DNA of 64,000 nucleotides, taken from the NCBI GenBank assembly GCA_038213805.1, contig JBBQSO010000001.1:64001-128000 (forward strand), read 5' to 3'. Positions 7,186-54,453 of this stretch are shown here, piece by piece. Origin of the DNA: Planctomycetota bacterium. GTDB taxonomy: Bacteria > Planctomycetota > UBA11346. How positions within the stretch are numbered: the first letter of the stretch is position 1; each line of letters begins with the position of its first letter. The notes below the pieces were generated by a model. It saw nothing but the letters and a program-made list of their open reading frames with translations, had not been told where the DNA came from and searched no databases. Position numbers and translations under genes: made by a program.

Positions 7186-7713
7186 ATGCCGCCTACCGAC
7201 ACTTCTCGCATGGCCTTCGAGATCTTGGTGCGGCAGCACCACCGCCGGCTGCTCGGCTACGCCCTGGCGCTGTGCCGCTCCTCGGCCGAGGCCGAAGACC
7301 TGGTCCAGGAGGCGTTCCTGGTGGCCTACCGCGAACTCTCCCGCTTCGACCCCAGCCGCGACTTCGGCGCGTGGGTGCGCGGCATCGTGCGCATGAAATG
7401 GCTGGAAAGCCATCGCCGCCGTGAACGCCCGGTAGACGACGTCACCCTGGCGGCGCTCGACGAGGGGCATCGCCGGCTTGAGGTCAGCGAGGCGGAAGCT
7501 GGCATCGACGCTCTGGCGACCCTGCGCGGCTGCGTCGCCCGCCTCGATGACGCGCTGCGCCAAACCGTCGAGCTGTTCTACCTGCAGGAGCTGCCCTGCC
7601 AGGCGGTGGCGGAACGCACCGGGGTCTCGGTCGAAGCGGTGCGCAAGCGCCTGCAGCGCGCGCGTGAGGCGCTCGGCGACTGCCTCGGCAGGAACGCGGA
7701 GCGGCCATCATGA
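7186..7713 (+). CDS. ECF sigma-70 factor
   Basis: Region 2 AEAEDLVQEAFL..FGAWVRGI; region 4 VELFY..VAERTGVSVEAVRKRLQRAR. Start set at ATG 7186 rather than 6958. Confidence 0.93.
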   Translation: MPPTDTSRMAFEILVRQHHRRLLGYALALCRSSAEAEDLVQEAFLVAYRELSRFDPSRDFGAWVRGIVRMKWLESHRRRERPVDDVTLAALDEGHRRLEVSEAEAGIDALATLRGCVARLDDALRQTVELFYLQELPCQAVAERTGVSVEAVRKRLQRAREALGDCLGRNAERPS

Positions 7714-20647: not shown

Positions 20648-23638
20648 TCAGAAGTCGTCGGCGCCGGGCTTGATGACCGGCGGCGGCGGCTGGTAATTGA
20701 GGAAGGCGTTGGGACCGAACGCCGCGTTGGCCGCGGCGACTTTGGCAGCGAGCACGGTGCGCTGCTCCGCGGTCAAGGCGGTGCGATCGAGCAGTCTGCG
20801 CGCCGCGATGCGCGCCCAGGCTCCCGGAGCGGCGACGCAGACGTCCAGCGCGGCGATGGTCGCCCCGCTCAGTGGTCGGATCTGGGCATGCCGCTGCAGC
20901 GCCATGGCGGCGTACTGCGCCACCATGCGGTCAGGACAGGAAAGCAGCCTGACCAGCAAAGCCTCGCTACCGTCGCTGCGCGAACCGCCGAGCGCGCCGG
21001 TGAGCGGCGCAAGGTCGCTGGTCCAGTTCGGGGCCGGCATGTGCTCGCACTCGGCGATGATCGCCGCTGCGGCGGCGAGACCCGCGGGCTGCAAGCGCTC
21101 GACCAACGCCGCAGCGGCGTTGATGCGCCCCGCCGCGCCATGGACGGGCTGGGATATCGGACCGGCATCGGCCTGCGGGGCGGCCTGCAGCTCGGCGAGG
21201 AGAGCGGCATCCGCGTCCGGGCCGCGCAGCCGGCAGAGCGCCAGCAGTGCGGCGTTGCCGACCGTGTAGGGCTCCAGCTCGAGCGCGGAGCGGTCGCCGC
21301 GCAGTGCGACGATGGCCGCGACCAGTGCCGCTGGCGCGTCACCATCCAGCGCGGTGCCCGCAGTGGCCAGCGCCGCGTCGCGCACGACGGCATCGGCGGT
21401 GGCCAGTGCAGCCTGTACGGCGGCGAGCGCGCGCGGTCCGCCGTGGGGCGGCAGGGCGCGCAGCACCCACGCGCGGGCGCGTGATTGGGTCTCGTTGGTC
21501 GCGCGGGCGATGATAAGCTCGTCGAACGCGGCGATCATCGCTTCGGAGTGTTTGCGCTCGCGCACCGCCTTGGCCAGGATCAGCGCCTGGTGCGCCGCTT
21601 CCGTGCGCACCTCGGGCCGGGGGTCGACGAGGGTTGCCAGGAACGCCGCCATGACCGCGTCACCCGGCCCATCCTTGCGCGTGAGCGCAACTGCGAGCGC
21701 CCCGCCCAGGCCGCGCACCGCGCCACGCCGAGCCTTTGCCTGCGTGTCGGCCAAGCCGGCGCGCAGCCACGGCAGCAGCGCTGCGGGATCCGCATCGGGC
21801 TGGGCTCCGGGAAGCGCGGCTGAGGCCTGCGCGCGCATCTCCGCGGATGGGCTGCCCGCGGCCAGAGTCAGCAACTGCTCCGTCACCGCCGGCATCCCGC
21901 CCAGCTCGCGGCGCCAAGCGAGCAGGGCGGGCACCCGCGCCTCGTCGCCCTGGTTGGCGACGAGCAGCGCTGCAATCAGCGGGCTCCACCCGATGGTATT
22001 GTCGCGAGCGATCTGCGGGGCTGCCGCCACCAGCAGCGCCGCGGTGGGAAGCACGCCGGCACCGATCACCAGGTCGTGACCACGCAGCACCGCGCCGCCG
22101 CCATCCGTCTCGACCCAGGCGAGGGTGGTCGGCACCTGCGGCGCCAGCGCCGCCCGTTCGAGAACGTCGAGCAACGCACCAGCAGTGACGGCATCCAGCC
22201 CGTCCAGGAACGGCAGCGGCAGCTCGCCACCGCTGATGGCGTGCAGACTGAGCGCAGCGCGCGCGAGCGGCACCAGCGCACCGAGGCGGTGGAGGATCGC
22301 CTGGTTGGCCTGCAGCGCGAGCCCGAGCGCGCCGGCGGGCAGGCCATGCTGCGTGCGCAGGCGTCCGGCCAGCCCGGGATTGCCGAGGCGCGTGAGCAGG
22401 TGTTCTTCAGTGGAGATCAGCCAGGCGCGTGCGCTGCGGCGGATCCAGATCGGCGCGCCGATCCACTTCGGCGTGACCTTGACCGGGGCCTGGCGCGCCG
22501 CGTCGATGCTGCCGCCGTCGTCTGGCCACGCGGCGCGCAGCCGCGCATCCAACCCCGGGCCGGCAGGGATGGCGAGGACCATGTCCGGCAACGGCAGTGC
22601 GGGCACGATGGCGACCCAGGCCGGGCCATCCACCTCCGCCAGGATGGCGGTGTCCGGACCCCATGCGGTGACTGCCAGCGGATCGGCGCTGGCCGCGCGG
22701 ACGGCCAGCGCCGCCAACGCGGGACCGTCGAGACCGACGGCGGACAGCGTGAGCGCGTCCGCGGGGACCTCGGCTTCCAGCACTGCGGTATCCAGCGCGC
22801 GCAGGGGCAGGTGGGCCCCGGGCAGGCGTATGGTCTCGCTGCTGCGGCCGCTGGCCAGACTCACCGTCGCCGCGACCTCGGTCGCACCGCTCGCCCGCAG
22901 CATCGCCTCCGCTCCGGGGATGCCCAAGGAGGCGACCAGCGCCGCCAGGTCGGCGGTAAGCTGCAGGTCGGCATCTCCAGCACCGCCCTGCGCAGGCTCG
23001 GCCCCAAGGCCGCCACCCAGCAACGTCGCGCCCTGCGCGACGATCCGCACCCCATCCACAGGGTCTTCCCCCCAAAAGGTGCGCGAGCGTGCGATGACGA
23101 CCCCATCTCCATCGGGCTGCGCGGGGACCCGCGCCATCACCGGCACCATCTGGTACGTATCGACCTGACCCAGGCGGAGCCGGGAGATGGCGGCGACATC
23201 TGTGGCGATGATGCCCTCGGCGCGCCGTCGGTCGCGCTCGGCCGCAGCCGGCACACCGAGCAGCATCGGCGCCGCGGGCGCGTCCAGATCGATGCGGAAG
23301 GCGACTTCGGTCTGCAGGCTCGCGGTGATCGCGGTGAGGTGCGGAAGCAGGCCCCGGAGATCAATCCCGGTGAGGTCCGCACCCTGGTCGATGAACCCAC
23401 CGAGGCGTGCCCGCGCGGCGTCGTCGAGGGCGCGCGTCGCGAGCGCGCCGTACCAGCTCGTCGCGAGCCGCGCGCGCAGGCGCGGGACATCGGGGATGCT
23501 CAGTGTAAACAGCGGGCCATTCGGATACGGGTGCACCGCGGGCACGGGTTCGGTTGGAAGCTCGACCGCGGCCACAGCGCAGCAAGCAACGAGGGCGATG
23601 CACATCATCAACGCCAGTGGCACGCGGCGCGCGACCAT
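20648..23638 (-). CDS. Large exported hypothetical protein with C-terminal HEAT-like repeats
   Basis: Long ORF with genome-typical composition; hydrophobic N-terminus; repeats such as LADTQAKARRGAVRGL, LVDPRPEVRTEAA, DAVVRDAAL. Start uncertain (23638 or 23728). Confidence 0.65.
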   Translation of the reverse strand: MVARRVPLALMMCIALVACCAVAAVELPTEPVPAVHPYPNGPLFTLSIPDVPRLRARLATSWYGALATRALDDAARARLGGFIDQGADLTGIDLRGLLPHLTAITASLQTEVAFRIDLDAPAAPMLLGVPAAAERDRRRAEGIIATDVAAISRLRLGQVDTYQMVPVMARVPAQPDGDGVVIARSRTFWGEDPVDGVRIVAQGATLLGGGLGAEPAQGGAGDADLQLTADLAALVASLGIPGAEAMLRASGATEVAATVSLASGRSSETIRLPGAHLPLRALDTAVLEAEVPADALTLSAVGLDGPALAALAVRAASADPLAVTAWGPDTAILAEVDGPAWVAIVPALPLPDMVLAIPAGPGLDARLRAAWPDDGGSIDAARQAPVKVTPKWIGAPIWIRRSARAWLISTEEHLLTRLGNPGLAGRLRTQHGLPAGALGLALQANQAILHRLGALVPLARAALSLHAISGGELPLPFLDGLDAVTAGALLDVLERAALAPQVPTTLAWVETDGGGAVLRGHDLVIGAGVLPTAALLVAAAPQIARDNTIGWSPLIAALLVANQGDEARVPALLAWRRELGGMPAVTEQLLTLAAGSPSAEMRAQASAALPGAQPDADPAALLPWLRAGLADTQAKARRGAVRGLGGALAVALTRKDGPGDAVMAAFLATLVDPRPEVRTEAAHQALILAKAVRERKHSEAMIAAFDELIIARATNETQSRARAWVLRALPPHGGPRALAAVQAALATADAVVRDAALATAGTALDGDAPAALVAAIVALRGDRSALELEPYTVGNAALLALCRLRGPDADAALLAELQAAPQADAGPISQPVHGAAGRINAAAALVERLQPAGLAAAAAIIAECEHMPAPNWTSDLAPLTGALGGSRSDGSEALLVRLLSCPDRMVAQYAAMALQRHAQIRPLSGATIAALDVCVAAPGAWARIAARRLLDRTALTAEQRTVLAAKVAAANAAFGPNAFLNYQPPPPVIKPGADDF

Positions 23639-23839
23639 CGCACAGCATCGCCAGCCGTGGCACCCAGACTGGTCGACGAACGCGGCCGCCGAGGCGGCGG
23701 AAACACAGAGCATGGGGGGATGATGCATGGCAGCGGCCGATCAGCATTCTCCCCCTCGTGCCAGGGGCAAGCGGATTGCCCGACCGTTGTGCGCCCCAAC
23801 GCGACTGCGGGCGAGCTTTTCAACTCCGGGCCTAACGCC

Positions 23840-26248
23840 TCACTTCTCCACCCACGGCGACAACCGCATCCCCGGAATCGGCCGTTCCATGCCGCCATCG
23901 GGAAGCTTCCAACCGACCGAGCAGTGGCTGTCGCCCGCGCCCTGCTGGTGGCGGATCTCGAGATAATAGCGGTTCCCCGCCTGCAACGTGAGGGGCGCGG
24001 AGCGCTGCTTCCCGCCGTCCCAGTTCCCGTACTTGCTGCGCGACGACCAGCACAACACCCTGCACTTCTCCGGCGTCTCATCGCTGCTCAGCGCGAGTTC
24101 GCCTTCGTTATCCGCGGTGATCCAGAACACGTACGTGCCGGTCTGTGGTGGCACCAGATAGCCACGCAGGCGTGAATAATAGGCTTTCCCGTCGTTGCGC
24201 GGCTCGTCCAAGATGGTGAGCGGGCCGCTCTGGTCAGGCGCATTCTTCAGCTTGGGGTTGGTGGCCGCCGTCTTCAGATAGTCAGTGGAGACGTCCAGCC
24301 ACTTTTCGCGCAGGATCGTACCCGCACCTGCGGGCGTGGCGACGATGCTGACCGCGACCCGCGGCGATGCTGTGTGACCGCCATCAACAGCGGTGGCGAC
24401 CGCGCTGAACGCGGCGACGTGCGCGTGCAGCCGATGGGGAGCAAGAGTGAGGCGCCAGGGCGGCCGGCTGACGCTGCCAAGCACCTGGTCCCCGTCCATG
24501 AACGCCACCGTGCTGATCTCGGCAGAGGATGCCACGACCTCGGCAAGCAGATCCAATGGCCGGCTGTCATCCTGGATGGCATCCGCTTGCGGCAGGGTCA
24601 GCAACGCCACCGGCGGAATCGGCGCCGCCGGCGCGCCGATGGTGGCCAAGGTCAACCCCGAAACCACCGCGTGGCCCGGTCCGCTGATGGTCAGCACCAG
24701 GGGCGCGCCGGTCAGGGTGGTGCGATAGGGTCCCAACCTGCGCCACGCCGTGCCCGGCAGCGGCGGCGCATTCTCGGTACGTTCGCCGACGACCAGCGAG
24801 ACCGCGCCAGCAGCGCCGTCACCGGCCACCCACAGCGTGATCTCGTAGGTCCCGGCGGGCAGGGCCTGGCTCAGCCGCACCGGCCCGCCACCGGCGATGA
24901 TGCCGCGCTCGAGCATGCTCTTGCCGTCAAAATCGAGGCCGGCGCCGCTCAGTGGCGGAATGGTGGCGGCGACCGCCTCTGCCCCCAGGACCAGCCCGCC
25001 GGCGAGCGCCTGGCGCTGGCCGATCCAAGGATTGCGCTCGATGACCACGCCCTCGCCACCAAGGTTGATGCCCCGTACGAAGACCGCCTGCCCATCGCTG
25101 CGCGGCATCCAGCGCGCCGCGGTCGGCACCGGCGCTGCCAACACCTTCGGTGGAGATAGAGCGGGATCCTGGTCGAGCGTACCCGGGACTTCAGCGCTGG
25201 GCGCCTGGACCACCACCGGCGCGGCCACGGCGCGCGGATGGTCACCACGTCCCCAGGTCAGCAGCAACGCGATGCTGCCGACCAGGATCAGGCCACCGGC
25301 GACCAAACCCGCCGCCAGCCCAGAGCTGCCTGTGGCGGGCGCGGACGTGCGCGGGCGGGAGAGCCCGTCCGAAGGTCGTACGCGCCGCGCGCCATGCTCT
25401 GGTGTGGCGATGCGCCGCAACTGCTCGGACGGGGAACGTGACGCCTCCACCCGGCGCAGCTCCGGCACCGGTGCAGGCTCGGCGCCCGCGCCAGGATCGA
25501 GAGTCGCCCAGGCGGAGTGGGCGACCACGCGCGCGGCGTCTTCGCCCAGTGGTCCAAGCAGCGCGCGCAGCACCAGATCAAGGCACGCCTGTCGCATGAA
25601 GGTGGCAGCGCGCCCGCGGTCGGCCAGGACCTGGCCGGCGAAGCGCCCACGCAGGTCGCCATCCAGGACGCCGGCGAGGTACTCCTCGATGATCGCGCTG
25701 AAGGGTCCATGCGCACTGGCGCCGACGCTGGCATCAGGCTGCCAGTCGAGGCTGCTACGCGCCATGACCAGGGAATCGGCGACGTCCTCGAGTGGGACGT
25801 TCTGGGCGGCGGCGAGCGCGGCGATCGGCAGCTGCTCGGCGTAGTGGCGATGCAGCAGGCGCTGCGCCATCAACGGCATGCGCCCCAGACGATCACGCAC
25901 CTGGTGCCCCGCAGCGAGGGTCGGCACAGCGACTGCTTGCAGCTCGGCCGCAGCCACGCGTGCCTGCGTCTGGGGCAATGCATCCGTGGTCGGCAGCGCC
26001 AAGCGCTGGGCCAGCTCGTTTCGCGCCAGGTCGAGCACCCATGGCAGTGGCGCTTCCGGACATGCAGCGAGTCGGCGCCGCACGACGCACCACACCGCCA
26101 GCGCAGCGTCATCGACCATCACCGCATCAAGCGCGTAGGTGGCCAGCCACAGGCGCAGCTCGCCATGCAGCGCCTGGACCAGTTCGGTGAAGGCCGCGGC
26201 CTGTCCGCTCCGTACACGTGACGTGAGTGCGGCCAGCTCAGCGCTCAC
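23840..26248 (-). CDS. Membrane-anchored fusion: degenerate ECF sigma, anti-sigma-like domain, TM helix, malectin-like, Ig-like and PA14 domains
   Basis: AAFTELVQ (sigma2-like); RLLHRHYAEQLPIAALA..V..SL..AR (sigma4-like); IIEEYLAGVLD; TM LVAGGLILVGSIALLL; FVRGINLGG; PA14 RLRGYLVPPQTGTYVFWITADNEGEL..QGAGDSH. Confidence 0.75.
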   Translation of the reverse strand: MSAELAALTSRVRSGQAAAFTELVQALHGELRLWLATYALDAVMVDDAALAVWCVVRRRLAACPEAPLPWVLDLARNELAQRLALPTTDALPQTQARVAAAELQAVAVPTLAAGHQVRDRLGRMPLMAQRLLHRHYAEQLPIAALAAAQNVPLEDVADSLVMARSSLDWQPDASVGASAHGPFSAIIEEYLAGVLDGDLRGRFAGQVLADRGRAATFMRQACLDLVLRALLGPLGEDAARVVAHSAWATLDPGAGAEPAPVPELRRVEASRSPSEQLRRIATPEHGARRVRPSDGLSRPRTSAPATGSSGLAAGLVAGGLILVGSIALLLTWGRGDHPRAVAAPVVVQAPSAEVPGTLDQDPALSPPKVLAAPVPTAARWMPRSDGQAVFVRGINLGGEGVVIERNPWIGQRQALAGGLVLGAEAVAATIPPLSGAGLDFDGKSMLERGIIAGGGPVRLSQALPAGTYEITLWVAGDGAAGAVSLVVGERTENAPPLPGTAWRRLGPYRTTLTGAPLVLTISGPGHAVVSGLTLATIGAPAAPIPPVALLTLPQADAIQDDSRPLDLLAEVVASSAEISTVAFMDGDQVLGSVSRPPWRLTLAPHRLHAHVAAFSAVATAVDGGHTASPRVAVSIVATPAGAGTILREKWLDVSTDYLKTAATNPKLKNAPDQSGPLTILDEPRNDGKAYYSRLRGYLVPPQTGTYVFWITADNEGELALSSDETPEKCRVLCWSSRSKYGNWDGGKQRSAPLTLQAGNRYYLEIRHQQGAGDSHCSVGWKLPDGGMERPIPGMRLSPWVEK

Positions 26249-27521
26249 GGGAGGTCCCTCTGTCCGGCCGCCCCGCGCGACGGCGGGCAGCGGCAGTCCG
26301 GCCACTCGGACGACGTTGCCGGCTCAGCCGGTCACTTCCACGGCAATGCCCGGCGAGGCGGCTCCGGCCGATCGCGCTCCGCCACCCGTGCGGCCGTCGG
26401 GATGGGCCGCGACGGGGCGGTCCAGAGCGGAATCGACTACGGGCTGGCACCATGGAACTGGGGGAGTTTACCTGCAGTACTGGGCCCCTGCCAGACCGCT
26501 TTCCCAGGACTCCGCACAGGCCAGTGCGACGCTGTCGGTAGCATCGCCTGCGATCCCAAGCTCGACCTGCTCCTCGACCGCGTCGTCGATGTCCAGCGTG
26601 AAAGGGGTGTGGGCCGCGTGGACCCAGCTCGCGCGCCTCAAGCAGGGGTTCTGCCCGCGACCGTGCACGACCCTCGCCTGCACCATCGACCTGGGTCCAG
26701 GCGGCACCTTCAGCACCACGATGCGTTCGCCCGACGTCACGAACGCGCATGCCCGCCGCCAAAAGAGCAGCCGGATCCTGGTCACTGCCAGGACAGCGTT
26801 TCCCAAGGCGGAAAATGCGCTCGCAACGCCTGCCCCTCTCACCTCATCGCCTGGAGGTTGCGTACCGTCCCCAACAACCATGTGAGCGCATGAAGGACGA
26901 GCGTCGCGCACGAGTACGAATTATGAGAAGCCTGGAATTCCTGCCCGCGCAGGGCGATGGACGGTCATTCCGCTGACCGTTCCATGCCCGCGCGCGATGA
27001 CCAGGACCTCCGCACCTTCCAGCCAGCGTCGTCGCTCAAGGCGCGTGGCCTCCATCTCGGCTGCCTGCCAACCTTATACACGGGATTGGGGCAGCATGGC
27101 GGCCGCGACCACCGTCTGTACGTCTGTCTCGCGCCACACGAGGGTCTCGTCGTGTTGTGCGCGACGACCTCGCCCGGACCTCGCTGAGTGGATCGAGGTG
27201 CAAGCGGTGAGACGAATGGAACAAGAGCATCCGTCCGCACTCTCACGCACCAGAGGTCGTGAAGACACCAGTCATGTTTGCACAAATGTTAAAAGCATAG
27301 ATGACTCATGAATTCGATTTATCAGCACGCGAATACTGGCCACATCGTCAACCTCGGCAACTCGCACTGATTCCTGGAATTTCACTGCATTTGGACGAGA
27401 GAAATAATTTAGGTTGCTGGGTTCAGCGTCCCATGTCCTAAGCTTCCCGATGACCTGCGTCATGCGCCCTTAAGCCGCTCCAGCGCCGCCTTCTGCCGCG
27501 TCCAGTCCACCAAGGATTCCG

Positions 27522-27725
27522 ATGAATATGACTTTTGCCCTCGTCCTGACGATCGTCGGCATCGTGTTGCTGCTGATCGGACTTGATGCAGCGGATGCCA
27601 TCCAGAACGCCTTCTCGCGCCTGTTCTCCGGCCACCTCACCGATCACACGGTGTGGCTGACGGTGGGCGGCATCATCTGCGTGATCATCGGTCTAGGCGG
27701 CTGCTACCGCAGCCGCCGGATCTGA
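27522..27725 (+). CDS. DUF3185-family small membrane protein
   Basis: Two TM helices flanking FSRLFSG..TD.TVW..GG. Confidence 0.85.
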   Translation: MNMTFALVLTIVGIVLLLIGLDAADAIQNAFSRLFSGHLTDHTVWLTVGGIICVIIGLGGCYRSRRI

Positions 27726-27775
27726 TTTCCCGCCTTCGGTCCCCATCCATCAACACCTGACCAGGAGTCGATACC

Positions 27776-27916
27776 ATGGCCAAAGTCGAACATACGTCCA
27801 AGACCGTCGCCGCGAAGGCGTCGAAGATCCTCAAGGATCCGAAATCCACCAAAGCGATGAAGTCGATCGCCGCCTCGGCGCTGACCCAGGCGCCGGATCG
27901 CAATAAGCGTAAGTAG
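27776..27916 (+). CDS. 46-aa basic small protein (not in the ORF track)
   Basis: AGGAG at 27763; ATG 27776 to TAG 27914-27916; MAKVEHTSKTVAAKASKILKDPKSTKAMKSIAASALTQAPDRNKRK; mostly G/C third positions. Confidence 0.8.
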   Translation: MAKVEHTSKTVAAKASKILKDPKSTKAMKSIAASALTQAPDRNKRK

Positions 27917-27930
27917 TCCCGCTGTCGATC

Positions 27931-27985
27931 GTGGCCGGATGCGTCCGGCCACGAATCCCTGGGCTCGCCCCCCCTCTGGGCGAGC
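27931..27985. terminator. Two adjacent GC-rich hairpins between small genes
   Basis: GTGGCCGGA-TGCG-TCCGGCCAC and GCTCGCCC-N7-GGGCGAGC; no U-tract. Confidence 0.35.
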
Positions 27986-28015
27986 AGTCCACACCCACTT
28001 CTCCGGATGCACCTC

Positions 28016-28189
28016 ATGCTCAGATGGGCCCTCATCTTCCTCGTCATCGCCCTCATCGCCGCCGTCTTCGGATACGGTGGCGTGTCGCGGGACTTGGCGG
28101 AAATCGCCAAAATCCTCTTCTTCATCTTCATCGTGATCTTCGCGATCACCGGATTGATGCATCTGATGGGCTCCGGCCGGCGCCGCTGA
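28016..28189 (+). CDS. ytjA: DUF1328 / UPF0391 small membrane protein
   Basis: MLRWALIFLVIALIAAVFGYGG......IAKILFFIF is the characteristic family sequence. Confidence 0.9.
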   Translation: MLRWALIFLVIALIAAVFGYGGVSRDLAEIAKILFFIFIVIFAITGLMHLMGSGRRR

Positions 28190-28357
28190 GTGCTGGTCAT
28201 CGCGGTCTGAAGGGACGTCCCCGGACGGCTGCAATCGAGAAACGAATCAATCGGATCTTGGCTTAGAAGGCCTGCGCGGAACCGGCGCAGGGCCCTCCGT
28301 AGCCTCCTCACGTCCGTATTCCATCGCCCGCCATAATCTCACCCTCGGAAGAACCCC

Positions 28358-30466
28358 ATGCCTACCGGATCCACACATACCGCAGTTGCTCTGCGATCCA
28401 GCCTTTCACTCCTCGTCATGCTGATCGCGCTGGCCGCGCCTGCTGGTGCCGCAACCTCGACCTGGACCGCCGCCGGTGCGACCAGTAATTTCGATGATGC
28501 CGCCAACTGGGATGCGGTCCCGACGCCGAACTGCATCATGGTCTTCCCGGCCGGAGCCGCGTTCGCCTCCAAGGGCGCACCCGTCAACAACCTGATTGGC
28601 CAGACCATCGATCAGCTGAACGTGTCCGAAGCCTATGTCATCACCGGCAACGCGATCGTGTGCAAGAACATCAACGATAACAGCGCTGGAACCGTGACGA
28701 TCGCGCTGCCGATCAGCACCGCGGGCTCGGCGGTGCTGACGGTCACCGTGACCATCGCCGGCGCTACCCTGAACCTGTCCGGTAAACTCACCGGCGCTGG
28801 CCCGGTGTCCTACAGCGGCCCCGGCAATAAGCGCCTGAACGGCACCATCAACAATACACTCTCGGGCCTGTCGATCGTCGCGCAGGGCTTCCTGGTGCTG
28901 GACAGCACGGCAACCGAGGCGATCTCCGGACCGCTGCAGGTCGACAGCGGCGCGACCGCGCGGCTGGTCCGCGCGCCGGCGATCAAGAATTCCGTTACGG
29001 TAACCGTCAACGGCACCTTGGATATGTCGGCAACCACCGGCAGCGACGGCACGGACACCGAACTCATCGGTGGCCTGGCCGGCACCGCCACTGCGGCCAA
29101 TATCAGCCTGGGCGCAAACACCCTGGGCTGCACCGCGCAGGTCGCGCCGACCAACTATGCTGGCGGCTTCTCCGGCACCGGTGGCTTCCGCCAGTCCACC
29201 AGCGGCACCGAGGTGCTCAGCGGCACTGCATTCCCTTATACCGGCACGACGCGGCTGGCTGGCGGCGAGATCCACATCTGGGGTTCGCTGATCGGTTCGC
29301 CGGTCGTCGCCACCAGCGGCACCCTGGTGCTCGCCAACGACGCCACCGTGGGTGCCGTCACCCTCAGCGGTGCCACCAGTGTGCTGTCATTCAACGAGAC
29401 CATCTCGGCCATGACCATGCACGCCACCACGCCAAGTCTCACCATCGGCAGCGGCAGCACCTTCCTGGTCGTCACCAAGTCGCCGACGGATTTCGCAAAT
29501 GTGTCGACCGCGGCAGTGAACCTGAACGGCGCGGTTCTGAGCGTAGACACTGCACTCTTCTCGCCAGCCCCGACGTCAGTCATGACCATCATCACCAATA
29601 CGGGATCCGGATCGGTCGTGGGCACCTTCGCTGGTCTCGCAGAAGGCGCGACCGTGGTCTCGTCAACCAACAGCGGCACGACCTTCACCATCAGTTATGT
29701 CGGCGGCACTGGTAGTCACAACGTCACCCTCACCGGGGTGGCGATTTCCAGCGACACCACGGCGCCGGCAATATCGGCGATCGCGACGAGCGGTATCACC
29801 GGCAATTCCGCCACCGTCACCTGGACGACCAATGAGGCGTCGACCAGCCAGGTCGAATTCGGTCTGACCACGGACTACGGTAGCGTGACCACGGTCAATG
29901 CTGCGCTGGTGCTCTCCCACAGCGTGGGCCTCACCGGGCTGGTCGGATCGACCACGTACCACTTCCGTGTGCGCAGCCGCGATGCTGCTGGCAATCTCGC
30001 CACCAGTGCGGATGGCACGTTCGCCACAGCCGCTGATACCACGGCGCCGGTGGCCTCGGCCATCACTGCCGGCAGCATCACCGGCACCACGGCCGTGATC
30101 ACCTGGACTACCGATGAAGCCAGCGACAGCCAGGTCGAGTTTGGCCTGACCACCGCCTATGGAACCGTGACCACGCTCGACACCAGCATGGTCACCGCCC
30201 ACAGCGTCACCGTCAGCGGACTGGCGCTTTCGACCCTGTACCACTTCCGGGTGCTCAGCAGTGATGCCTCCGGCAACGTGGTCACCAGCGCGGATGGAAC
30301 CTTCACCACCACGGACGGCACGGTGCCGGTCGCGTCGTCGGACAGCCACCACCACTGCGGTGGCGGCAGCGTGTTCGGCTTCCTGATGGTGACCCTGATG
30401 CTGTCGCTGCGGCTGCATCGCCGGGGCCGCATCCCGGTCGAAGCGCGCGGCCAGCTGGACGCGTAA
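28358..30466 (+). CDS. Surface protein: autotransporter-associated beta-strand (beta-helix) region, two FN3-like repeats, Cys-Gly C-terminal anchor
   Basis: Signal peptide, NFDDAANW, YTGTTRLAGG, GTFAGLAEGA..FTISYVGGTG, two DTTAP..ITWTT.E.S.SQVEFGLTT.YG..YHFRV repeats; ends CGGGSVFG, TM helix, HRRGR. Confidence 0.85.
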   Translation: MPTGSTHTAVALRSSLSLLVMLIALAAPAGAATSTWTAAGATSNFDDAANWDAVPTPNCIMVFPAGAAFASKGAPVNNLIGQTIDQLNVSEAYVITGNAIVCKNINDNSAGTVTIALPISTAGSAVLTVTVTIAGATLNLSGKLTGAGPVSYSGPGNKRLNGTINNTLSGLSIVAQGFLVLDSTATEAISGPLQVDSGATARLVRAPAIKNSVTVTVNGTLDMSATTGSDGTDTELIGGLAGTATAANISLGANTLGCTAQVAPTNYAGGFSGTGGFRQSTSGTEVLSGTAFPYTGTTRLAGGEIHIWGSLIGSPVVATSGTLVLANDATVGAVTLSGATSVLSFNETISAMTMHATTPSLTIGSGSTFLVVTKSPTDFANVSTAAVNLNGAVLSVDTALFSPAPTSVMTIITNTGSGSVVGTFAGLAEGATVVSSTNSGTTFTISYVGGTGSHNVTLTGVAISSDTTAPAISAIATSGITGNSATVTWTTNEASTSQVEFGLTTDYGSVTTVNAALVLSHSVGLTGLVGSTTYHFRVRSRDAAGNLATSADGTFATAADTTAPVASAITAGSITGTTAVITWTTDEASDSQVEFGLTTAYGTVTTLDTSMVTAHSVTVSGLALSTLYHFRVLSSDASGNVVTSADGTFTTTDGTVPVASSDSHHHCGGGSVFGFLMVTLMLSLRLHRRGRIPVEARGQLDA
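29752..30312 (+). repeat. Tandem duplication of a ~94-aa FN3-like domain
   Basis: Near-identical protein and DNA segments, e.g. CAGGTCGA(A/G)TT(C/T)GG(T/C)CTGACCAC in both units. Confidence 0.85.
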
Positions 30467-30905: not shown

Positions 30906-31557
30906 GGCGATCGCGAGATCCACACGCGCATCACGCAATACGAGATGGCCTTCCGCATGCAGGCCGCAGTTGTGGAGCTGGTCGACCTCGCGCTGACGGG
31001 CGATGCGACCTTTGCGCTCTCCGACGAGGATGCGCGCAGACCCGGAACCTTGGCGCGCAATTCTCTGCTACCGCCGCCACGCAGAACGCAGCGTGCGCTG
31101 GATCCAGCCCTACCACCGCGGCTGGAACCACCACGGCGGCCTCGCCCAGCGGCTGCAGGTGGGCGCGCGTGATACCGACCAGGCCGCCGCCGGGCTGATC
31201 GCCAACCTGCGCCAGCGCCGCAGGCTTGACGATACCCTGCTGCTCTGGTCCGGCGCGTTCGGCCGCACCTGCTACGCCCAGGGCGGGGCCAACCGCGAGA
31301 AGTATGGCCGCGATCACCACGGTCGCGCCTTTTCCGCATGGCTCGCCGGAGGCGGCACCAAGCCCGGCATCAGCTGGGGCGCGAGCGACGACTTCGGCTT
31401 CAACATCGCCAGCGACCCGGTCCACGTCCACGATCTGCAGGCGGCCATCCTGCACTGCCTGGGCATCGACCACGAACGTCTCAGGTACCGCAGCCAGGGG
31501 CGGCAGTTTCGCTTGACGGATGTGGAGGGCAAGGTGGTGACGGGGATGCTGGCGTGA
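30906..31557 (+). pseudogene. C-terminal remnant of a second DUF1501 gene
   Basis: GDREIHTRITQYEMAFRMQ, frameshift near 31070, then AERSVRWIQPYHRGWNHH..FGRT..GRDHHG..VHVHDLQAAILHCLGIDHERL..RLTDVEG. N-terminal half is missing. Confidence 0.88.
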
Positions 31558-40011: not shown

Positions 40012-40548
40012 ATGGGTACGGATCTCTCGGCCGCCGATCACGAGCGCTTCACCCGGCATTGGACCCTGGCCAGTCCGATGGTGGCGGACTACATCAGCGC
40101 CCTGGTGCCGAATTTCCATGAGGCCGAGGACCTGCTGCAGAACGTCGCCATCGTCGTCCTGCGCAAATTCGACCAGTACGACCAGGCGCTGCCCTTCGCC
40201 TTCTGGGCGATGGGCATCGCCCGCTATGAGGTATTGAGCAAGCGGCGCGAATTCTCGCGGCGGCGGGTGCTCTTCACTCCAGATCTCGCCGATCAGGCGG
40301 CCGAGCTCCAGCAGGAGATGAGCGCCGAGCACGAAGCCCGTCAGCGCGCCCTGCGGGACTGCCTGCGCGCGGTCGGTGAGCGCGCGACCACGGTGCTGCG
40401 CATGCGCTATGAAGAGGCACTCGAGCCGCGCGACATCGCCGAGCGCCTCGGCATGTCGTCAGGCGCCATCCGCGTGATGCTCAGTCGGGTGCGCTGCGTC
40501 CTCCAGGAGTGCATCCAGGCGAAGATCGCCGTGGCGGACCACCGCTGA
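40012..40548 (+). CDS. ECF sigma-70 factor (Planctomycete/Verrucomicrobia type)
   Basis: EAEDLLQNV, FAFWAMGIARYEV, LRMRY..IAERLGMSSGAIRVMLSRVR..LQECI. Confidence 0.93.
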   Translation: MGTDLSAADHERFTRHWTLASPMVADYISALVPNFHEAEDLLQNVAIVVLRKFDQYDQALPFAFWAMGIARYEVLSKRREFSRRRVLFTPDLADQAAELQQEMSAEHEARQRALRDCLRAVGERATTVLRMRYEEALEPRDIAERLGMSSGAIRVMLSRVRCVLQECIQAKIAVADHR

Positions 40549-42398
40549 TGACCGTGCCGCTCCCCCTCATCGATGCCTTCCTGGATGACCACCTGGACGA
40601 TGACCAGACCGTCGCGCTGCAGACCTGGTTGGCAGCCGATCGCGAGCACCTGCGGGCCTTCCTGCGCATCACGTCCGTGCACCGGGCGCTGCGCCGCGAG
40701 TTCACCAGCGCCCAGGCGCACGTACGCTTCTCAGCGCAGGCACCGAGCGCCACCACCCGTCGGTTGCGCATCGCGGCGCGGCGAGGCGGATCGCGGCGCC
40801 CGGTCGGGATGAACCCGTGGTGGCTGCGGGGCGCGGGCATCGCCGCCGGCCTGCTGCTGGCGATCGGCCTGGTCATGGGCGGTCACCGCGCCGGGGATGA
40901 CGCGGTCCAGATCGCCGCCGGTTCCGCCGTTATCGAGCGGCCGACGGGCCCGGTGCCGGCGCATGCGGGCGATGTGGTGCAGCGTGCCGATGCGATCGTT
41001 GCTGCGCAGGGCCCCGTCACCCTGCGCTTCGCCGATGGCACCACGGTGCGACTCGATGCGGATGCCCGGATCGTGCTGACGTCCGCAGGAAGCGCGGACC
41101 AAGGCAAGCGCCTGGAACTGGGCATGGGTCGGCTTTCCGCGAGCGTCGCCAAGCAGCCCAGCGGTCGTCCGCTGACCATCACCACCGCGACCGCGACCGC
41201 GGTGGTGGTCGGCACCGCATTCAGCCTGAGCAGCTCCGCGACTGCGACCCGCCTGGACGTCGAACACGGTCGCGTGCGGCTTGAGCGCCAAGTCGATGCC
41301 GCAACGGTCGAGGTCGGCGCCGGCGAATACGCGGTGGCGGACCCGGGCAGCGCATTGGTAGTGCGCAAGCAGGGCACCCTGCCGGGCGATGCCCCCCTGC
41401 ATGTCGGTGGCGCCCGGCACAACCAGCTCATTGGGCCGGATGGGAAGCGCTTCGTGTTGAAGGGCGCACAGGTCGGCCTCACCCTCTTCTATGCCCAGCT
41501 CGGCTCGCCGTGGGAATACCGGCTGCTCGCGGACCGGGCCGTGTTCGAGCGCGCCTTCAGCGGGCGCCTCGCACAGCTCGCGGCGATGAAGGCCAACGGC
41601 ATCAACACCGTGCGCATCTTCGTCGGCGGGGCGGTGGCCCACGACCCCAACAACGGGTATGCGACTCCAGAGCAGGGCTACGGCGGGTTCGCCGGCTATG
41701 TCCAGCGCCTGGTCACCTATGCCGACGATGCCCGCAACCAGGGGTTCCACGTCATCTTCTGCTACAATGGCGATGATGGGTGGTCGCAGGATACGAACTG
41801 GCCTGCGTATCGCAGACTGTTCAGCGCACTGGTGCCGGCGCTCGCGACCAACGGCAACGTGCTGTTCGAACTCGTCCATGAACCGGACATCGAAGATCGC
41901 GAATGGAGCCGGTGCAGCGTCCGCGCCATCGACCTTTTCCGTTCACTCGGATATCGGGGCCCACTCGTGGTCGACCTCGATCATCGCTGCAACTGGTGGT
42001 ATGAGCCCATCGTCGACGAAGTTTCCCGGCATGATCAGCAACTGGTCTTCAGCCTGCACTTCGCGAAATGGGTGGGCTGGGCGCACACCGAGGAAATGCT
42101 GCGCAACGGCGCCCATCGACCGGTGATCCTCGGACAGGTGACACCCAATGTGGGCAATGACCTTGGCGAGCCGGACGCCATCGCGGCCGTGGTCGCCATG
42201 CGTGCGCTGGTCACCCAGGAAATCGCGATCGGCGCCGTGGCGGCGGAATGGAATGCACGCGATGGCCAGCCTCCGACGCCCGGCACGGGCATGACAGACG
42301 ACGATGGCGCCCTCGTGCCGAACTCATGGGGCGTTGGATATCGTGATGGATTCAGTGGTCGCCTGCCTGATTGGCTCCCTGTCGCAACGCCTCCGTGA
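40548..42398 (+). CDS. Anti-sigma factor: FecR domain fused to a GH5-like TIM barrel
   Basis: TGATG overlap with the sigma gene; LIDAFLDD N-domain; TM helix; FecR FADGTTV..AVVVGTAF; GH5-like FVLKG, GINTVRI, VLFELVHEP, FSLHF, PVILGQ. Confidence 0.85.
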   Translation: MTVPLPLIDAFLDDHLDDDQTVALQTWLAADREHLRAFLRITSVHRALRREFTSAQAHVRFSAQAPSATTRRLRIAARRGGSRRPVGMNPWWLRGAGIAAGLLLAIGLVMGGHRAGDDAVQIAAGSAVIERPTGPVPAHAGDVVQRADAIVAAQGPVTLRFADGTTVRLDADARIVLTSAGSADQGKRLELGMGRLSASVAKQPSGRPLTITTATATAVVVGTAFSLSSSATATRLDVEHGRVRLERQVDAATVEVGAGEYAVADPGSALVVRKQGTLPGDAPLHVGGARHNQLIGPDGKRFVLKGAQVGLTLFYAQLGSPWEYRLLADRAVFERAFSGRLAQLAAMKANGINTVRIFVGGAVAHDPNNGYATPEQGYGGFAGYVQRLVTYADDARNQGFHVIFCYNGDDGWSQDTNWPAYRRLFSALVPALATNGNVLFELVHEPDIEDREWSRCSVRAIDLFRSLGYRGPLVVDLDHRCNWWYEPIVDEVSRHDQQLVFSLHFAKWVGWAHTEEMLRNGAHRPVILGQVTPNVGNDLGEPDAIAAVVAMRALVTQEIAIGAVAAEWNARDGQPPTPGTGMTDDDGALVPNSWGVGYRDGFSGRLPDWLPVATPP

Positions 42399-51928: not shown

Positions 51929-54223
51929 TCACCGCGGTGGCAGGCCGATGGTGATGGCGCTGAAATCGACGGGATTGAAATGGGTCAGCAGTCCGACCTT
52001 GCCCTCCACTGGTTCGCCGAGGTCGGCAGCAGTGATGATGGCCGCCCCATTGATCGCGACGGTCACCTTTCGGCCGATCCGGGTCACCGTGACGGTGCTG
52101 GTCTTCCACTTGCCGGTGCCGACGCAGGCAGCCTGCGCCACCTGCGTCCGCATGCCCTTGGCGACGCGCGCCAACGCGACGCTGCCCAGGCCATCGATCG
52201 TCAGGGCATCGTAGTCCTGCGCATCGGTGAATCCGAAAACCAGACCGGCGACGTTGTCGAAGCGCGGCATCATGGACACCGTGAATGCGAGGTCCTTCAA
52301 AGTCAGGGCGTCGTAGACGCAGAGGTCGAGGCCCTCTGCCGACGTATGGTTGTATTTTCCTTCTGCGCACGACCAGGTGCCACCGAGGGGCGTCCAGTCC
52401 TTGGCGACGCCAGCGCTGAAGTCCGCCACATAGGACTTGGCTGCGGTGGTTCGGCTGATGGCGATACCCATCAGCACCGGTGCGCCGCGCAGGGCCTTGG
52501 CGACGATGTCGAGCTGCTGGTTGCGCACCTCGACGGCGATCGGGCCGCACTTCGCCCACCCACCAAGCGGCAGGTCACCGAGCCCGGAGATCACCACCCC
52601 GCCGCACGTGAGATCGAACACGCGCGCATGGGCGCGCTGGTTCTCGGCGGTCCAGAAGGTGACCTCGTAACCCCCATCAGGGAGCTTGAAGCTCAGCGCC
52701 AAGAGGTCGCTGCGCGCTGTGGAGATGCCGGAAGAGAGCATCGCCCGGGTGTCCGCGTCGGGCGGAGGCGGGATCAGGGCCAGCGACACCGAGACCCTGC
52801 GTGCATTCGTGAGGGTCATGCCATCCGCTTCGGCCAGCTTCTGGGATTGCCAGCGCCCACCCTCGATGATCACCGCCTCGCCGCCGAGATCGATGCCCTT
52901 GAGGAAGGCCGGGGCAGTGGCGGCGACGGGCGGTGCAGCCGGCGCAGGCAACTGCTCGCCCAGTGTGACCGGCACAGTGACGTCCGGGGGCGTGAGTGTG
53001 GCTGCGATCACGGGCGCAGCGGGCGCAGCCCCATCGGCCGGAGGTACAGGTGGCGTCGCGACCGCTTCCGGAACGGCGAGGGCCGCGCTTCGCGATGCGT
53101 GCAGAGCGGTTTCCGACGCCTCGCGGGGCGCGGGAAGCGCCGGCGGCTGCGCCACGATGGGCGCCGCAGGCGACGGTTGCGCGGGCAAAGGTCGATCTGC
53201 ACGCGGCGCGCCCGGAGCCGCATGCGCACTCGTGGGCTGGGTCGAGTCGTGACGGCCTGGATTGCCCGGCGGTTTGAGCATCACCGCCACGATCACCGCG
53301 ATCACGGCACCAACCGCCACGGTTGCACCCAGCACCGGCGATGGCAGGCGGCGGCGGAGACGTTGGGATGGAATCCTCGCGCTGCGGCGGCTGTCCACGG
53401 CAGCGGAGCGATGACTGTCCGCGGACGTGGCGCGGAGTGCCGGCGCTGCGGCGGCTGCCAGGATCTCGTCAGCGAAGGCCGTCATCGTCGCCATCGACGG
53501 TTCCCCGAGGGCCTCGCCGAGCAGCAGGTCGATCCGCACCTGGCGCTCGAATCTGGCCGCAAAGGGCAGGTCGTCGCGTACGCGCTGGGCGAGCAGGCTC
53601 CGCGAATCCGGGTCGATCACGCCCGCGAGGAAGTCCTCGATGAGGGCGGTCATCACACTCTCCTGACGCTGCACGCTCGCCCCTGGCGACGGCGGTTGGG
53701 GCTGGTCGATGGCGGCGCGGGCCACCACCAGGCCCGCATCGACCTGCGCCCGGTCCCAACCGCGCTGCGTCGCCAGCGCCGCATTGCCCAGGCCGCCCTG
53801 GTACCTGCCGAGGATCAGGTCGCGTTGTTCCGGATCGAGTCGGGCGATCCCCACCTGGATCCGGCCGGCGCCGCCCGGCGCATCCACACCGCTCTGCAAC
53901 GCTTCCCGGCCGGTCTGCGCCAGCAGGTAACCGAGCGGGTCCTGGATGGCGATCGCGGTGGCCGCGCCCGCGTCGAGATGCCGCGCCAGGGCGGTCGCGG
54001 CCAGGACCTGCAATCCGGCACGTTGGCCGATCGCAGTTTCCGCCTGGGGTCGACTGATCCACTGCGCCCACAGGTCCCGTTCGAGCGCGTCGATCTGCGC
54101 CCGCGTCGCGGCGAAACCGGCCAGGAATGTCCGCAAGGATTGGCGATGATCCGCCAGCACCTGGACGACGTGGTCACGGTCGAGCGCGAGGGCGGCAGAA
54201 GGCTGACGGCGAACCGGCGACAT
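51929..54223 (-). CDS. Membrane-anchored fusion: degenerate ECF sigma, anti-sigma-like domain, TM helix, Pro/Ala stalk, malectin-like and DUF1080-like domains
   Basis: HRQSLRTFL (sigma2-like); LDPEQRDLILGRY (sigma4-like); LIEDFLAGVID; TM VAVGAVIAVIVAVML; FLKGIDLGG..YEVTFWTAEN...RVFDL; AGLVFG..GKVGL. Start uncertain. Confidence 0.75.
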   Translation of the reverse strand: MSPVRRQPSAALALDRDHVVQVLADHRQSLRTFLAGFAATRAQIDALERDLWAQWISRPQAETAIGQRAGLQVLAATALARHLDAGAATAIAIQDPLGYLLAQTGREALQSGVDAPGGAGRIQVGIARLDPEQRDLILGRYQGGLGNAALATQRGWDRAQVDAGLVVARAAIDQPQPPSPGASVQRQESVMTALIEDFLAGVIDPDSRSLLAQRVRDDLPFAARFERQVRIDLLLGEALGEPSMATMTAFADEILAAAAAPALRATSADSHRSAAVDSRRSARIPSQRLRRRLPSPVLGATVAVGAVIAVIVAVMLKPPGNPGRHDSTQPTSAHAAPGAPRADRPLPAQPSPAAPIVAQPPALPAPREASETALHASRSAALAVPEAVATPPVPPADGAAPAAPVIAATLTPPDVTVPVTLGEQLPAPAAPPVAATAPAFLKGIDLGGEAVIIEGGRWQSQKLAEADGMTLTNARRVSVSLALIPPPPDADTRAMLSSGISTARSDLLALSFKLPDGGYEVTFWTAENQRAHARVFDLTCGGVVISGLGDLPLGGWAKCGPIAVEVRNQQLDIVAKALRGAPVLMGIAISRTTAAKSYVADFSAGVAKDWTPLGGTWSCAEGKYNHTSAEGLDLCVYDALTLKDLAFTVSMMPRFDNVAGLVFGFTDAQDYDALTIDGLGSVALARVAKGMRTQVAQAACVGTGKWKTSTVTVTRIGRKVTVAINGAAIITAADLGEPVEGKVGLLTHFNPVDFSAITIGLPPR

Positions 54224-54453
54224 AGGACACCCTGGGGACAGCACCTGCACGACTCCGGCCCGGCGCGCAGCAATCCGGCGGCCGGACAGCTTGCGTTCAC
54301 GACCGGAGACTGGGTCAGCATACGCCTGGAACCACTGTGCCACAAGCCGGGCCCGCTACCTGCAGAACTCCCGGACGATGGCCACAAGGATGTACAAATG
54401 GTTGCCACCGCAATTCTTGCGGACTTTGTCCCAGAGCCTCGAAAGTTCCGCGA

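Follow-up and report, generated by a model that had tools for sequence, protein, structure and literature searches.

The window analyzed here, a stretch of 64,000 nucleotides (nt), spans positions 64,001 to 128,000 of contig JBBQSO010000001.1 in a Planctomycetota metagenome-assembled genome (MAG) of 180 contigs (assembly GCA_038213805.1). Its minus strand carries, at 23840..26248, an intact coding sequence (CDS) of 802 codons plus a stop codon. In the encoded protein a module resembling an extracytoplasmic function (ECF) sigma factor is followed, within the same chain, by an anti-sigma domain (ASD), a transmembrane (TM) helix and a large ectodomain. The enclosing open reading frame (ORF; 23840..26305, minus strand) is open throughout, and its codon-position GC is gene-like. 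The real start is most likely the GTG codon at 26248, since the ortholog L016 has ATG at the aligned position and the database record is 802 amino acids (aa) long; a conserved purine-rich stretch precedes the start in the L016 alignment. For all analyses residues were numbered in the 821-aa frame counted from an upstream GTG at 26305, in which the assigned start is residue 20.

L016, found in another Planctomycetota MAG assembly, was the one ortholog returned by a single-protein scan for related loci. The two genes are 87-90% identical, both have 802 codons, and their alignment contains no indels and no stop codons. Overall dN/dS is 0.20, with 0.23 for sigma2, 0.12 for the linker plus sigma4, 0.39 for the ASD, 0.22 for the juxtamembrane segment, 0.08 for the malectin-like first ectodomain and 0.16 for PA14; all these values come from this single ortholog pair, and some segments are small. 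At the level of sequence comparison, purifying selection on the fusion protein is strongly supported.

The preliminary description of this locus had read it as an in-frame, single-chain fusion of sigma, anti-sigma and sensor. A trivial explanation would be a frameshift error that joined separate sigma and anti-sigma genes: the stand-alone pairs described below overlap by 4 nt, so that a single-base error would fuse them, and the window was taken from a MAG. The sigma/ASD junction is spanned by Logan contigs of the X1 and X2 runs, free of differences and gaps, although these are possibly the source runs of the assembly and are therefore not independent support. In run X3, from a second study, an approximately 8%-diverged relative spans the junction with 81 substitutions and no gaps, and no insertion or deletion is listed in any contig of the three runs (two studies). 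Further arguments against an artefact are the identical fused frame of the separately assembled L016, three fused paralogs in the source genome, 52 fused relatives in public data and the conserved motif that the sigma4-ASD connector bears of its own. For practical purposes the artefact is refuted, and its probability is close to nil. Neither contigs nor ortholog contain a stop codon or a frameshift between the sigma and anti-sigma parts, and the single-chain reading stands.

The features of the locus are listed below by window position, with the evidence for each; residues refer to the 821-aa frame, AF2 denotes AlphaFold2 and pLDDT its predicted local distance difference test, VIA is the structural superposition, and A1 is an alignment of fused N-termini described in the next paragraphs.

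23840..26248 (-): whole CDS (ORF, L016 alignment, contigs of runs X1-X3).
26249..26490 (-): upstream leader/promoter block of about 240 nt (pairwise DNA alignment with L016).
25991..26248 (-): sigma2-like domain, residues 20-105, with Leu69 at the site of the region 2.2 Gln (AF2 pLDDT >95, VIA, column statistics).
25925..25990 (-): helical, conserved sigma2-sigma4 linker, residues 106-127, with the family-invariant Asp108 (A1 alignment; helix 109-124).
25742..25924 (-): sigma4-like domain, residues 128-188, recognition helix PLEDVADSLVMARSSL of net charge -2, Arg183 invariant (profiles, AF2, columns).
25706..25741 (-): sigma4-ASD connector, residues 189-200 (pLDDT dips to ~68; identical in L016).
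25496..25705 (-): four-helix ASD of FecR/DUF4880 type, residues 201-270, with invariant Gln239 and Leu246 (AF2, profiles, predicted complex).
25331..25495 (-): cytoplasmic juxtamembrane segment, residues 271-325, rich in Arg, Pro and Ser (sequence; dN/dS 0.22).
25256..25330 (-): single TM helix, approximately residues 326-350 (uncharged hydrophobic stretch GSSGLAAGLVAGGLILVGSIALLLTWG; a crude scan places it at 328).
25112..25255 (-): Pro/Ala-rich periplasmic linker, residues 351-398, with no FecR domain (sequence, Pfam scan).
24623..25111 (-): malectin-like/carbohydrate-binding module (CBM) beta-sandwich, residues 399-561, conserved across the family (AF2, VIA, dN/dS 0.08; no Pfam match).
24329..24622 (-): Ig-like/Fn3-like domain, residues 562-659 (Pfam Big_7 E 0.023, VIA).
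23843..24328 (-): PA14 domain, residues 660-821 (Pfam PF07691, VIA, Foldseek).

Single-sequence searches revealed little about the N-terminal module. A Pfam scan of the fusion protein found no sigma family at E<=1, a word-indexed database search with residues 1-260 retrieved only the protein itself, and single-sequence phmmer against sequences of the Protein Data Bank gave nothing relevant. Matches were obtained to NF009166 (weak, end-to-end, E 0.0019) and to TIGR02989 (Sig-70_gvs1, a Rhodopirellula/Verrucomicrobium ECF subfamily; E 0.0057, 16.6 bits against a cut-off of 124.55, aligned over 2-154 of 158). With the latter model stand-alone relatives score 103-140 bits and the three scanned fused N-termini 16.6-27 bits; judged by these scores, the fused module is a descendant of the TIGR02989 subfamily and not a member of it. 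TIGR02937 gave no match for the three scanned fused N-termini, while stand-alone relatives reach E 1e-19 to 1e-21.

An exhaustive search with residues 1-260 detected 84 proteins at E<=1e-3, 83 of them non-self. Fifty-two of the latter (322-1828 aa) hold the ASD in the same chain, and in 46 of these a TM-like segment, called by a crude scan, lies no more than 160 residues behind it; the remaining 31 matches (87-253 aa) are stand-alone sigmas or fragments. Two alignments were built from these proteins. A1 comprises 38 fused N-termini, i.e. the three copies of the source genome and 35 of the 52 fused database matches. The 17 excluded matches are P0023, P0024, P0028, P0030 and P0031, which have an insertion in sigma2, together with P0041-P0045, P0055, P0056, P0058, P0063, P0069, P0073 and P0082. 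A2 comprises 23 stand-alone relatives (21 of the 31 short matches, the sigma of the L004 pair and the window sigma at 40012-40548) and excludes ten short matches that are fragments or extended forms.

Pfam models applied to the 38 fused N-termini matched one (Sigma70_r2) and 17 (Sigma70_r4_2) of them, with a best E of 8.7e-6. Positions 2-179 of the 275 in the A1 profile match solved ECF sigmas (AlgU 1.1e-17, RpoE 4.1e-15), and comparison of A1 with A2 by hhalign gives a probability of 99.8% and E 8.8e-30 over 179 columns. The AF2 model computed on A1 (pLDDT 91.7, predicted template modelling score 0.88) contains sigma2 helices at 20-102, a linker helix at 109-124 and sigma4 at 131-184. Its sigma2 part superposes (VIA) on sigma2 of SigC, CnrH and Escherichia coli sigmaE (RpoE) with Z 11.4-12.3 and a root-mean-square deviation (rmsd) of 1.8-2.2 Å over 86-88 residues. 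A Foldseek search with the N-terminal model found no match at E<=0.001, the top-ranked entries being ECF sigma chains at E ~0.02. Profiles, model and superposition strongly support a predicted two-domain sigma2 plus sigma4 ECF fold in the fusion N-terminus, as the sigma2-like and sigma4-like segments noted in the preliminary description had suggested.

The ASD behind this module is modelled by AF2 as four helices (201-210, 216-228, 230-250 and 255-269). When the source genome was searched with a profile of the ASD only, the N-termini of the stand-alone anti-sigmas C58 (1e-10/3e-11), C87 (7e-9/3e-8), C54 (6e-5) and C18 (0.004) were matched, and the genes of these proteins lie directly behind sigma genes. 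The C58 protein has the architecture DUF4880-TM-FecR-PA14. The ASD of the fusion contains one Cys and no HxxxCxxC motif, and the Pfam scan of the whole protein gave no match to the FecR domain (PF04773). A helical ASD followed by one TM helix, with predicted contacts to sigma2 and sigma4, matches the class I/FecR-type anti-sigma plan. An anti-sigma N-domain had been proposed earlier from an alignment by eye; the identity of the domain is upheld by the profile matches (C58, C87 and C54), but the alignment itself, to the protein at 40548, is not. That anti-sigma (40509-42398) gives a non-significant BLASTP E of 0.6 and is absent from the ASD-profile matches. The sigma at 40012-40548, tried as a BLASTP relative of the fusion protein, is likewise not significant (E 0.15).

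Between the ASD and the TM helix, A1 columns 326-329 display a family-wide motif, (N/D)ESS(R/L)L (Ser 74%, Ser 53%, Arg 61%), which is weak or absent in the copy from the window. It could be a degron or a phosphorylation site.

The AF2 model of the ectodomain (pLDDT 87.1) consists of three domains. In VIA comparisons the beta-sandwich 399-561 is closest to the C-terminal domain of 6d8g (Z 14.5, rmsd 2.8, 140 aa) and also resembles 2o14 (YxiM; Z 12.6); the malectin-like domains of ANXUR2/FERONIA score Z 12.3-12.4 (rmsd 3.3, 153 aa), other CBM-like sandwiches being equal or better, and Pfam Malectin has no match in the fusion protein at E<=1. The Ig-like domain 562-659 superposes on 9kvu (Z 16.4, rmsd 1.2) and 3pdd (Z 15.5), and Pfam Big_7 matches it with E 0.023 here and down to 1e-12 in relatives. 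The PA14 domain is recognized by PF07691 (E 4.1e-13, 49.8 bits vs cut-off 24) and is similar to bacterial PA14 sugar-binding domains (Z 14-15), including that of MpIBP (rmsd 2.8-2.9 Å over 144-146 residues). The best Foldseek matches of the ectodomain are the RsgI PA14 sensors 6qdi (E 2.1e-9) and 6qe7, with VIA Z ~16. The order TM helix, malectin-like, Ig and PA14, as first described, is recovered, the first element as the hydrophobic stretch and the second as a beta-sandwich of malectin-like or other CBM-like type (VIA Z 12.4-14.5). It is strongly supported that the outer part combines these domains, among them PA14, a glycan-binding module of the kind found on anti-sigma sensors.

In a working sigma the Gln of region 2.2 makes contact to the beta-prime clamp helices (core-binding helix), and the Arg residues of region 4.2 to the -35 element. 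This Gln is found in 21 of the 23 stand-alone relatives and in 44 of the 47 other ECF-like frames of the genome, but in only 3/38 fused members (Leu69 here). In region 2.4 the stand-alone relatives show GIARN at 83-96% conservation, of which the fused members as a set have kept only the Ala; the window copy retains Ala94, Arg95 and Asn96 of this motif, as well as Trp89. The first Arg of the region 4.2 RxR occurs in 21/23 stand-alone and 0/38 fused sequences (Met181 here), and the second, Arg183, in all 38. The net charge of the 4.2 recognition helix is -2 in both scored fused copies as against at least +1 in 45/47 other ECF-like frames, and that of the stretch after region 2.4 is 0 here as against at least +1 in 47/47; the third fused copy of the genome is too diverged for the stand-alone model and is absent from the charge comparison. 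Column statistics and charge counts agree with the missing AEDLxQE motif and de-charged recognition helix of the preliminary description, and the sigma with which it had contrasted them (window 7186-7713) does have AEDLVQEAF and VRKRLQRAR. Degeneracy of the sigma signature across the whole fused family is well supported by these sequence comparisons, and the sigma part probably, at odds of roughly two to one, no longer starts transcription.

The relation between the sigma-like module and the ASD was modelled as a two-chain complex (20-192 with 197-270). The ipSAE value was 0.91 in 3/3 runs and 0.01 in the best of three controls; at a partner pLDDT of 86, the runs shared at least 95% of their contacts. 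The mark applied to ipSAE is passed by 116/157 solved complexes and 2/215 mismatched pairs, counts that are approximate here, where a custom alignment was used. According to the contact listing of the predicted complex, from which the interface residues were read, the ASD touches sigma2 (39-44, 51-64 and 68-77), the linker (108-110, 113-114 and 117) and sigma4 (151-156 and 172-189). ASD helix 3 (235-253) sits between sigma2 (51-64) and sigma4 (151-156, 180-187), and helix 4 (257-269) on the region 2.1/2.2 face of sigma2 (39-44, 69-73). The invariant or gained residues A55, W72, R76, D108, Y155, R183, Q239 and L246 all fall within the predicted interface; for example, R183 contacts Q239/L246 and W72 contacts 262/265. 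In this model sigma2 and sigma4 are predicted to be clamped in cis around their own ASD, as in class I sigma/anti-sigma complexes. Since the interface residues are kept and those contacting RNA polymerase (RNAP) and DNA are lost, selection appears to preserve the lock and not the polymerase and DNA surfaces.

We favor, with a probability of roughly 40%, the reading that the protein is a self-locked pseudo-sigma on a glycan sensor, signalling by partner switching. The pseudo-sigma would plug its own ASD until a glycan, bound on the outside, led to the opening or release of the locked module, probably by way of regulated proteolysis at the membrane. Once freed, the module would compete with stand-alone sigma/anti-sigma pairs of the same type. 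It might do so by either of two routes: stand-alone anti-sigma domains could be titrated by the sigma mimic, in the way PhyR titrates NepR, or the sigmas of stand-alone pairs could be captured by the freed ASD. The preliminary description had offered either a released sigma or a PhyR-like mimic. Its single-chain architecture and its degenerate sigma are supported, and both extend to the whole family; the two interpretations remain the main alternatives, and the evidence leans to the mimic side because the residues contacting RNAP and DNA are lost while those contacting the ASD are kept. That account lacked two points, the predicted cis clamp by the protein's own ASD and a serious third reading, the relic anchor discussed further below.

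The main rival of the pseudo-sigma is a working one-component, membrane-tethered ECF sigma of the kind represented by IutY and ECF52, held by its own ASD and the membrane. A glycan would then trigger site-1/site-2 (RseP) cleavage, the ASD would be removed or the connector cut, and a small regulon would be transcribed. We regard this as somewhat unlikely. It has experimental precedent in the release of IutY by Prc and RseP (PMC5411451; PMC9249621), and the ECF52 protein SCO4117 has nearly the same domain order (PMC5826349; PMC8999054). M50 site-2 proteases are encoded at three loci of the genome. The predicted sigma2/sigma4 fold has remained intact, purifying selection acts on it, Arg183 never varies, and this copy still has Trp89, Ala94, Arg95 and Asn96; cleavage could take place in the sigma4-ASD connector, where the model is least confident, and diversification among paralogs would make promoter-contact columns variable. 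What speaks against a tethered sigma is the loss of the region 2.2 Gln, of the positive charge of the recognition helix and of the basic stretch after region 2.4. Moreover, with a complete ASD covalently attached, C-terminal degradation would run into the sigma. IutY has no ASD, and both known examples are working sigmas; this copy is without the FecR periplasmic domain. A weak further point is that five related copies have a TTGACC-containing upstream motif, which is not an obvious ECF-type autoregulated promoter.

The source genome contains three fused copies, i.e. the gene described here, a second one in the window (51929-54343, minus strand) and one on contig C4 with 54% identity, in addition to approximately 47 other ECF-like frames. 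Matches to the family profile at E<=1e-30 were found in 10/10 other genomes of the genus (2-8 each, of which a few are stand-alone sigmas and most span sigma plus ASD), in 1/14 other genera of the family and in 0/16 other families of the phylum, where one match covers the sigma part only; many genomes in this survey are incomplete, so these figures do not show absence. Members are annotated in public records as 'sigma24 family protein', 'Ig-like domain-containing protein' or 'hypothetical protein'. Ectodomain modules recognized among 42 fused relatives were PA14 (20), Big_7 (28), NPCBM (7), CBM_6 (5), Laminin_G_3 (4) and FecR (6), and the last of these indicates that fused forms still show their ancestry.

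Both halves have their closest stand-alone relative in the L004 pair of the source genome (sigma E 7.5e-35, ASD 1e-10 against the family profile), which consists of a TIGR02989-type ECF sigma passing the Pfam r2 and r4_2 cut-offs and a DUF4880-TM-FecR-PA14 anti-sigma. Among the 16 closest stand-alone sigmas no orphan partner was found: all 16 have a same-strand ORF of at least 100 aa starting at the stop codon, and 13 of these ORFs carry a TM-like segment (crude scan). In 10 of the 16 the sigma gene overlaps the anti-sigma gene by ATGA/GTGA, and a single indel would fuse such a pair. The best explanation for the gene is descent from a TIGR02989-type ECF sigma gene that overlapped a downstream FecR-type anti-sigma gene by 4 nt and became merged with it into one frame. 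In a quick, midpoint-rooted tree the 38 fused and 23 stand-alone sigma modules split on one branch (SH-aLRT 98); as the two groups were set by our own search, the split is evidence of clustering, not proof of a single origin. Branching off first among the fused members is P0035 (= L014), the only match in another genus, which keeps GIAR of region 2.4 and the first 4.2 Arg and is matched by Pfam Sigma70_r4_2 (6.9e-5). Its early position and retained sigma motifs fit decay after fusion, and P0035 may stand midway from a working fused sigma to the degenerate clade.

The second fused copy (51929-54343, minus strand) is an 804-aa frame with a probable start at a Met 40 codons in. It follows the same sigma-like/ASD/TM/malectin-like plan and ends in a 3-keto-disaccharide-hydrolase (LamG-like) domain instead of Ig plus PA14; it is 36-37% identical to the protein described here in two blocks and was missed by the stand-alone sigma model. 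Six more long stop-to-stop frames (436-759 aa) with an ECF sigma domain lie on contigs C45, C103, C31, C40, C54 and C109. In five of them the domain is N-terminal (residues 8-205); in the 577-aa frame on C109 it occupies residues 98-309. The six may represent further types of C-terminally extended sigma.

A search for the ectodomain also detected P0106 (709 aa, Planctomycetes MAG), in which the same first ectodomain (FVRGINLGGEG...) stands behind a 40-residue tail and a TM segment, with no sigma/ASD. Either this is a variant that naturally lacks the cytoplasmic part, or the gene call is truncated.

The family data bear on a third reading, in which the sigma/ASD part is a fossil complex that persists as a folded cytoplasmic cap, and the protein a wholly periplasmic glycan-binding one with no signalling output. 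Such a relic anchor would fit the observations that conserved residues belong mainly to core and interface, as expected if only the fold were selected, that the family diversifies mainly in its carbohydrate-binding modules, that the closest stand-alone sigmas include no orphan, and that P0106 has the first ectodomain on a plain TM anchor. Yet constraint on the cytoplasmic module equals that on the ectodomain (sigma4 dN/dS 0.12 vs 0.16 for PA14 in the one ortholog pair), the module is retained in 4/4 homologs covering at least 97% of the ectodomain, and all 38 aligned members keep it with D108, R183, Q239 and L246 invariant. Had a domain of 300 residues no function, one would expect some of the 2-8 copies per genome to have shed it. 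We consider the relic unlikely.

Several points also weigh against the self-locked pseudo-sigma. Every functional step in it is one that we infer, and the set of closest stand-alone sigmas offers no orphan with which a freed module might pair. P0106 indicates that the ectodomain can exist without the cytoplasmic module. Sigma/anti-sigma complexes have already been solved, so the ipSAE result may reflect likeness to them and not binding by this copy. Within the same genome 13 of the 47 other ECF-like frames are also without the first 4.2 Arg and two without the 2.2 Gln, and neither loss alone therefore proves inactivity. The invariance of Arg183 and the Ala-Arg-Asn kept in region 2.4 point the same way, and paralogous sigmas with diverged promoter specificities would likewise show variable DNA-contact columns. 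In its boldest form the pseudo-sigma reading would make this the first membrane-anchored sigma mimic, a set of lineage-specific glycan sensors with 2-8 copies per genome whose cis-locked module, once opened or freed, re-partitions the stand-alone FecR-type pairs of the cell, and so an independent PhyR-like switch driven from outside; this fuller version is doubtful.

As regards the surrounding DNA, the leader of about 240 nt (26249..26490, minus strand) is conserved with L016 and this conservation ends abruptly at ~26490. A scan for sigma-70-type promoters upstream found no site on the gene's own strand. The upstream regions of 13 fusion genes have no single common motif. Five related fusion genes from other species of the genus (L006, L008, L009, L010 and L011) have in common GGTTGACCGTGGCCGAA-N16-TAnnCT, ~60-100 nt before ATG in otherwise unconserved DNA; this motif was not seen upstream of the copy in the window and could be assigned to no sigma. 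Beyond the leader, window 26490-27379 is a stretch of ~890 base pairs with lower GC and small ORFs, some of which, on the minus strand, are tiny and membrane-protein-like. L016 lacks this stretch; there the block equivalent to window 27379-29805 nearly abuts the leader, and the difference represents an indel between close relatives. Downstream by 112 nt on the same strand (window 20648-23728), a 1026-aa HEAT-repeat protein with a hydrophobic N-terminus is encoded; it is syntenic in L016 and 53% identical, as against 90% for the fusion gene. An ORF at window 31003-31557 (plus strand) matches only the C-terminal part of DUF1501 (profile 231-389 of 390) and is fragment-like or has a wrong start.

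ECF sigma/anti-sigma pairs form the third large class of bacterial signal transducers, and Planctomycetota encode dozens of them per genome. To our knowledge, sigma-to-anti-sigma fusions are rare and those characterized keep a working sigma. The family described here can be ordered as a series, from an unfused pair through an early fused form with sigma motifs (P0035) to an expanded, decayed clade in which the interface is kept. Should the protein be a decoy, sigma mimicry would have arisen independently a second time, after PhyR, and here in connection with polysaccharide sensing; should it still be a sigma, it illustrates how much drift the ECF signature tolerates. Either way the locked module of 250 residues is a compact and well-predicted target for structural and binding work. 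In the literature searched we found no description of a planctomycete family of FecR-type fusions in which the cis ASD is complete and the sigma systematically degenerate; the supplement of PMC7826278, available in part, contains neither 'PA14' nor 'TIGR02989' in its text, and its further parts may say more or classify the family.

The L004 pair, which also has a PA14 ectodomain, differs from the fusion in that it consists of two genes overlapping by 4 nt and in that its sigma keeps Gln, GIAR and RxRK and passes the Pfam cut-offs. PhyR is the anti-anti-sigma of the alphaproteobacterial general stress response, in which a degenerate sigma2/sigma4-like domain binds an anti-sigma and not RNA polymerase; it is the only sigma mimic known to us from the literature searched. 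The likeness is one of shared idea only, a degenerate sigma-like domain binding an ASD, and the PhyR-SL/NepR structure 2lfw is a weak structural neighbor (Z 6.6). PhyR is soluble, receiver-gated and binds NepR in trans, whereas the protein described here has no Response_reg match, is anchored in the membrane, bears an ectodomain and has its ASD within its own chain.

ECF52 is close in overall plan. SCO4117 of Streptomyces coelicolor combines a sigma, a zinc finger, a TM segment, a Pro-rich region and a carbohydrate-binding domain, proteolytic activation has been proposed for this group, and it has been reported as exclusive to Actinobacteria (PMC5826349; PMC8999054). As there (and in ECF48 and ECF53), the fusion unites in one chain an ECF sigma, an anti-sigma-like domain, a TM segment, a Pro-rich linker and a carbohydrate-binding domain. 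However, the anti-sigma of ECF52 is of the zinc-finger (ZAS) type, while here a FecR/DUF4880-type four-helix ASD without a His/Cys motif is found in a Planctomycetota MAG. SCO4117 is also described with a regulon and a promoter motif, i.e. as a working sigma, in contrast to the degenerate signature of our protein.

IutY of Pseudomonas putida (ECF243), a sigma/anti-sigma hybrid of cell-surface signalling for which release by Prc and RseP has been demonstrated experimentally (PMC5411451; PMC9249621), resembles the fusion in joining a FecI/FecR-type sigma and anti-sigma in one membrane protein. Its sigma is joined directly to the TM segment, and a periplasmic FecR domain listens to a TonB-dependent transducer. 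Our protein has the ASD between sigma4 and the TM helix, lectin-like ectodomains and no FecR domain, and a scan of 38 window ORFs revealed no TonB-dependent receptor.

The RsgI proteins of cellulolytic clostridia are anti-sigmas whose PA14 or CBM outer domains sense polysaccharide (PMC6852018). Their PA14-dyad sensors (6qdi/6qe7) are the best Foldseek matches of the ectodomain described here, but in these systems SigI and RsgI are two separate proteins, the sigma-I being a working one and the N-terminal anti-sigma-I domain unrelated. Sigma/anti-sigma fusions and CBM-bearing anti-sigma sensors are thus already known, and what is new is their degenerate, cis-locked form.

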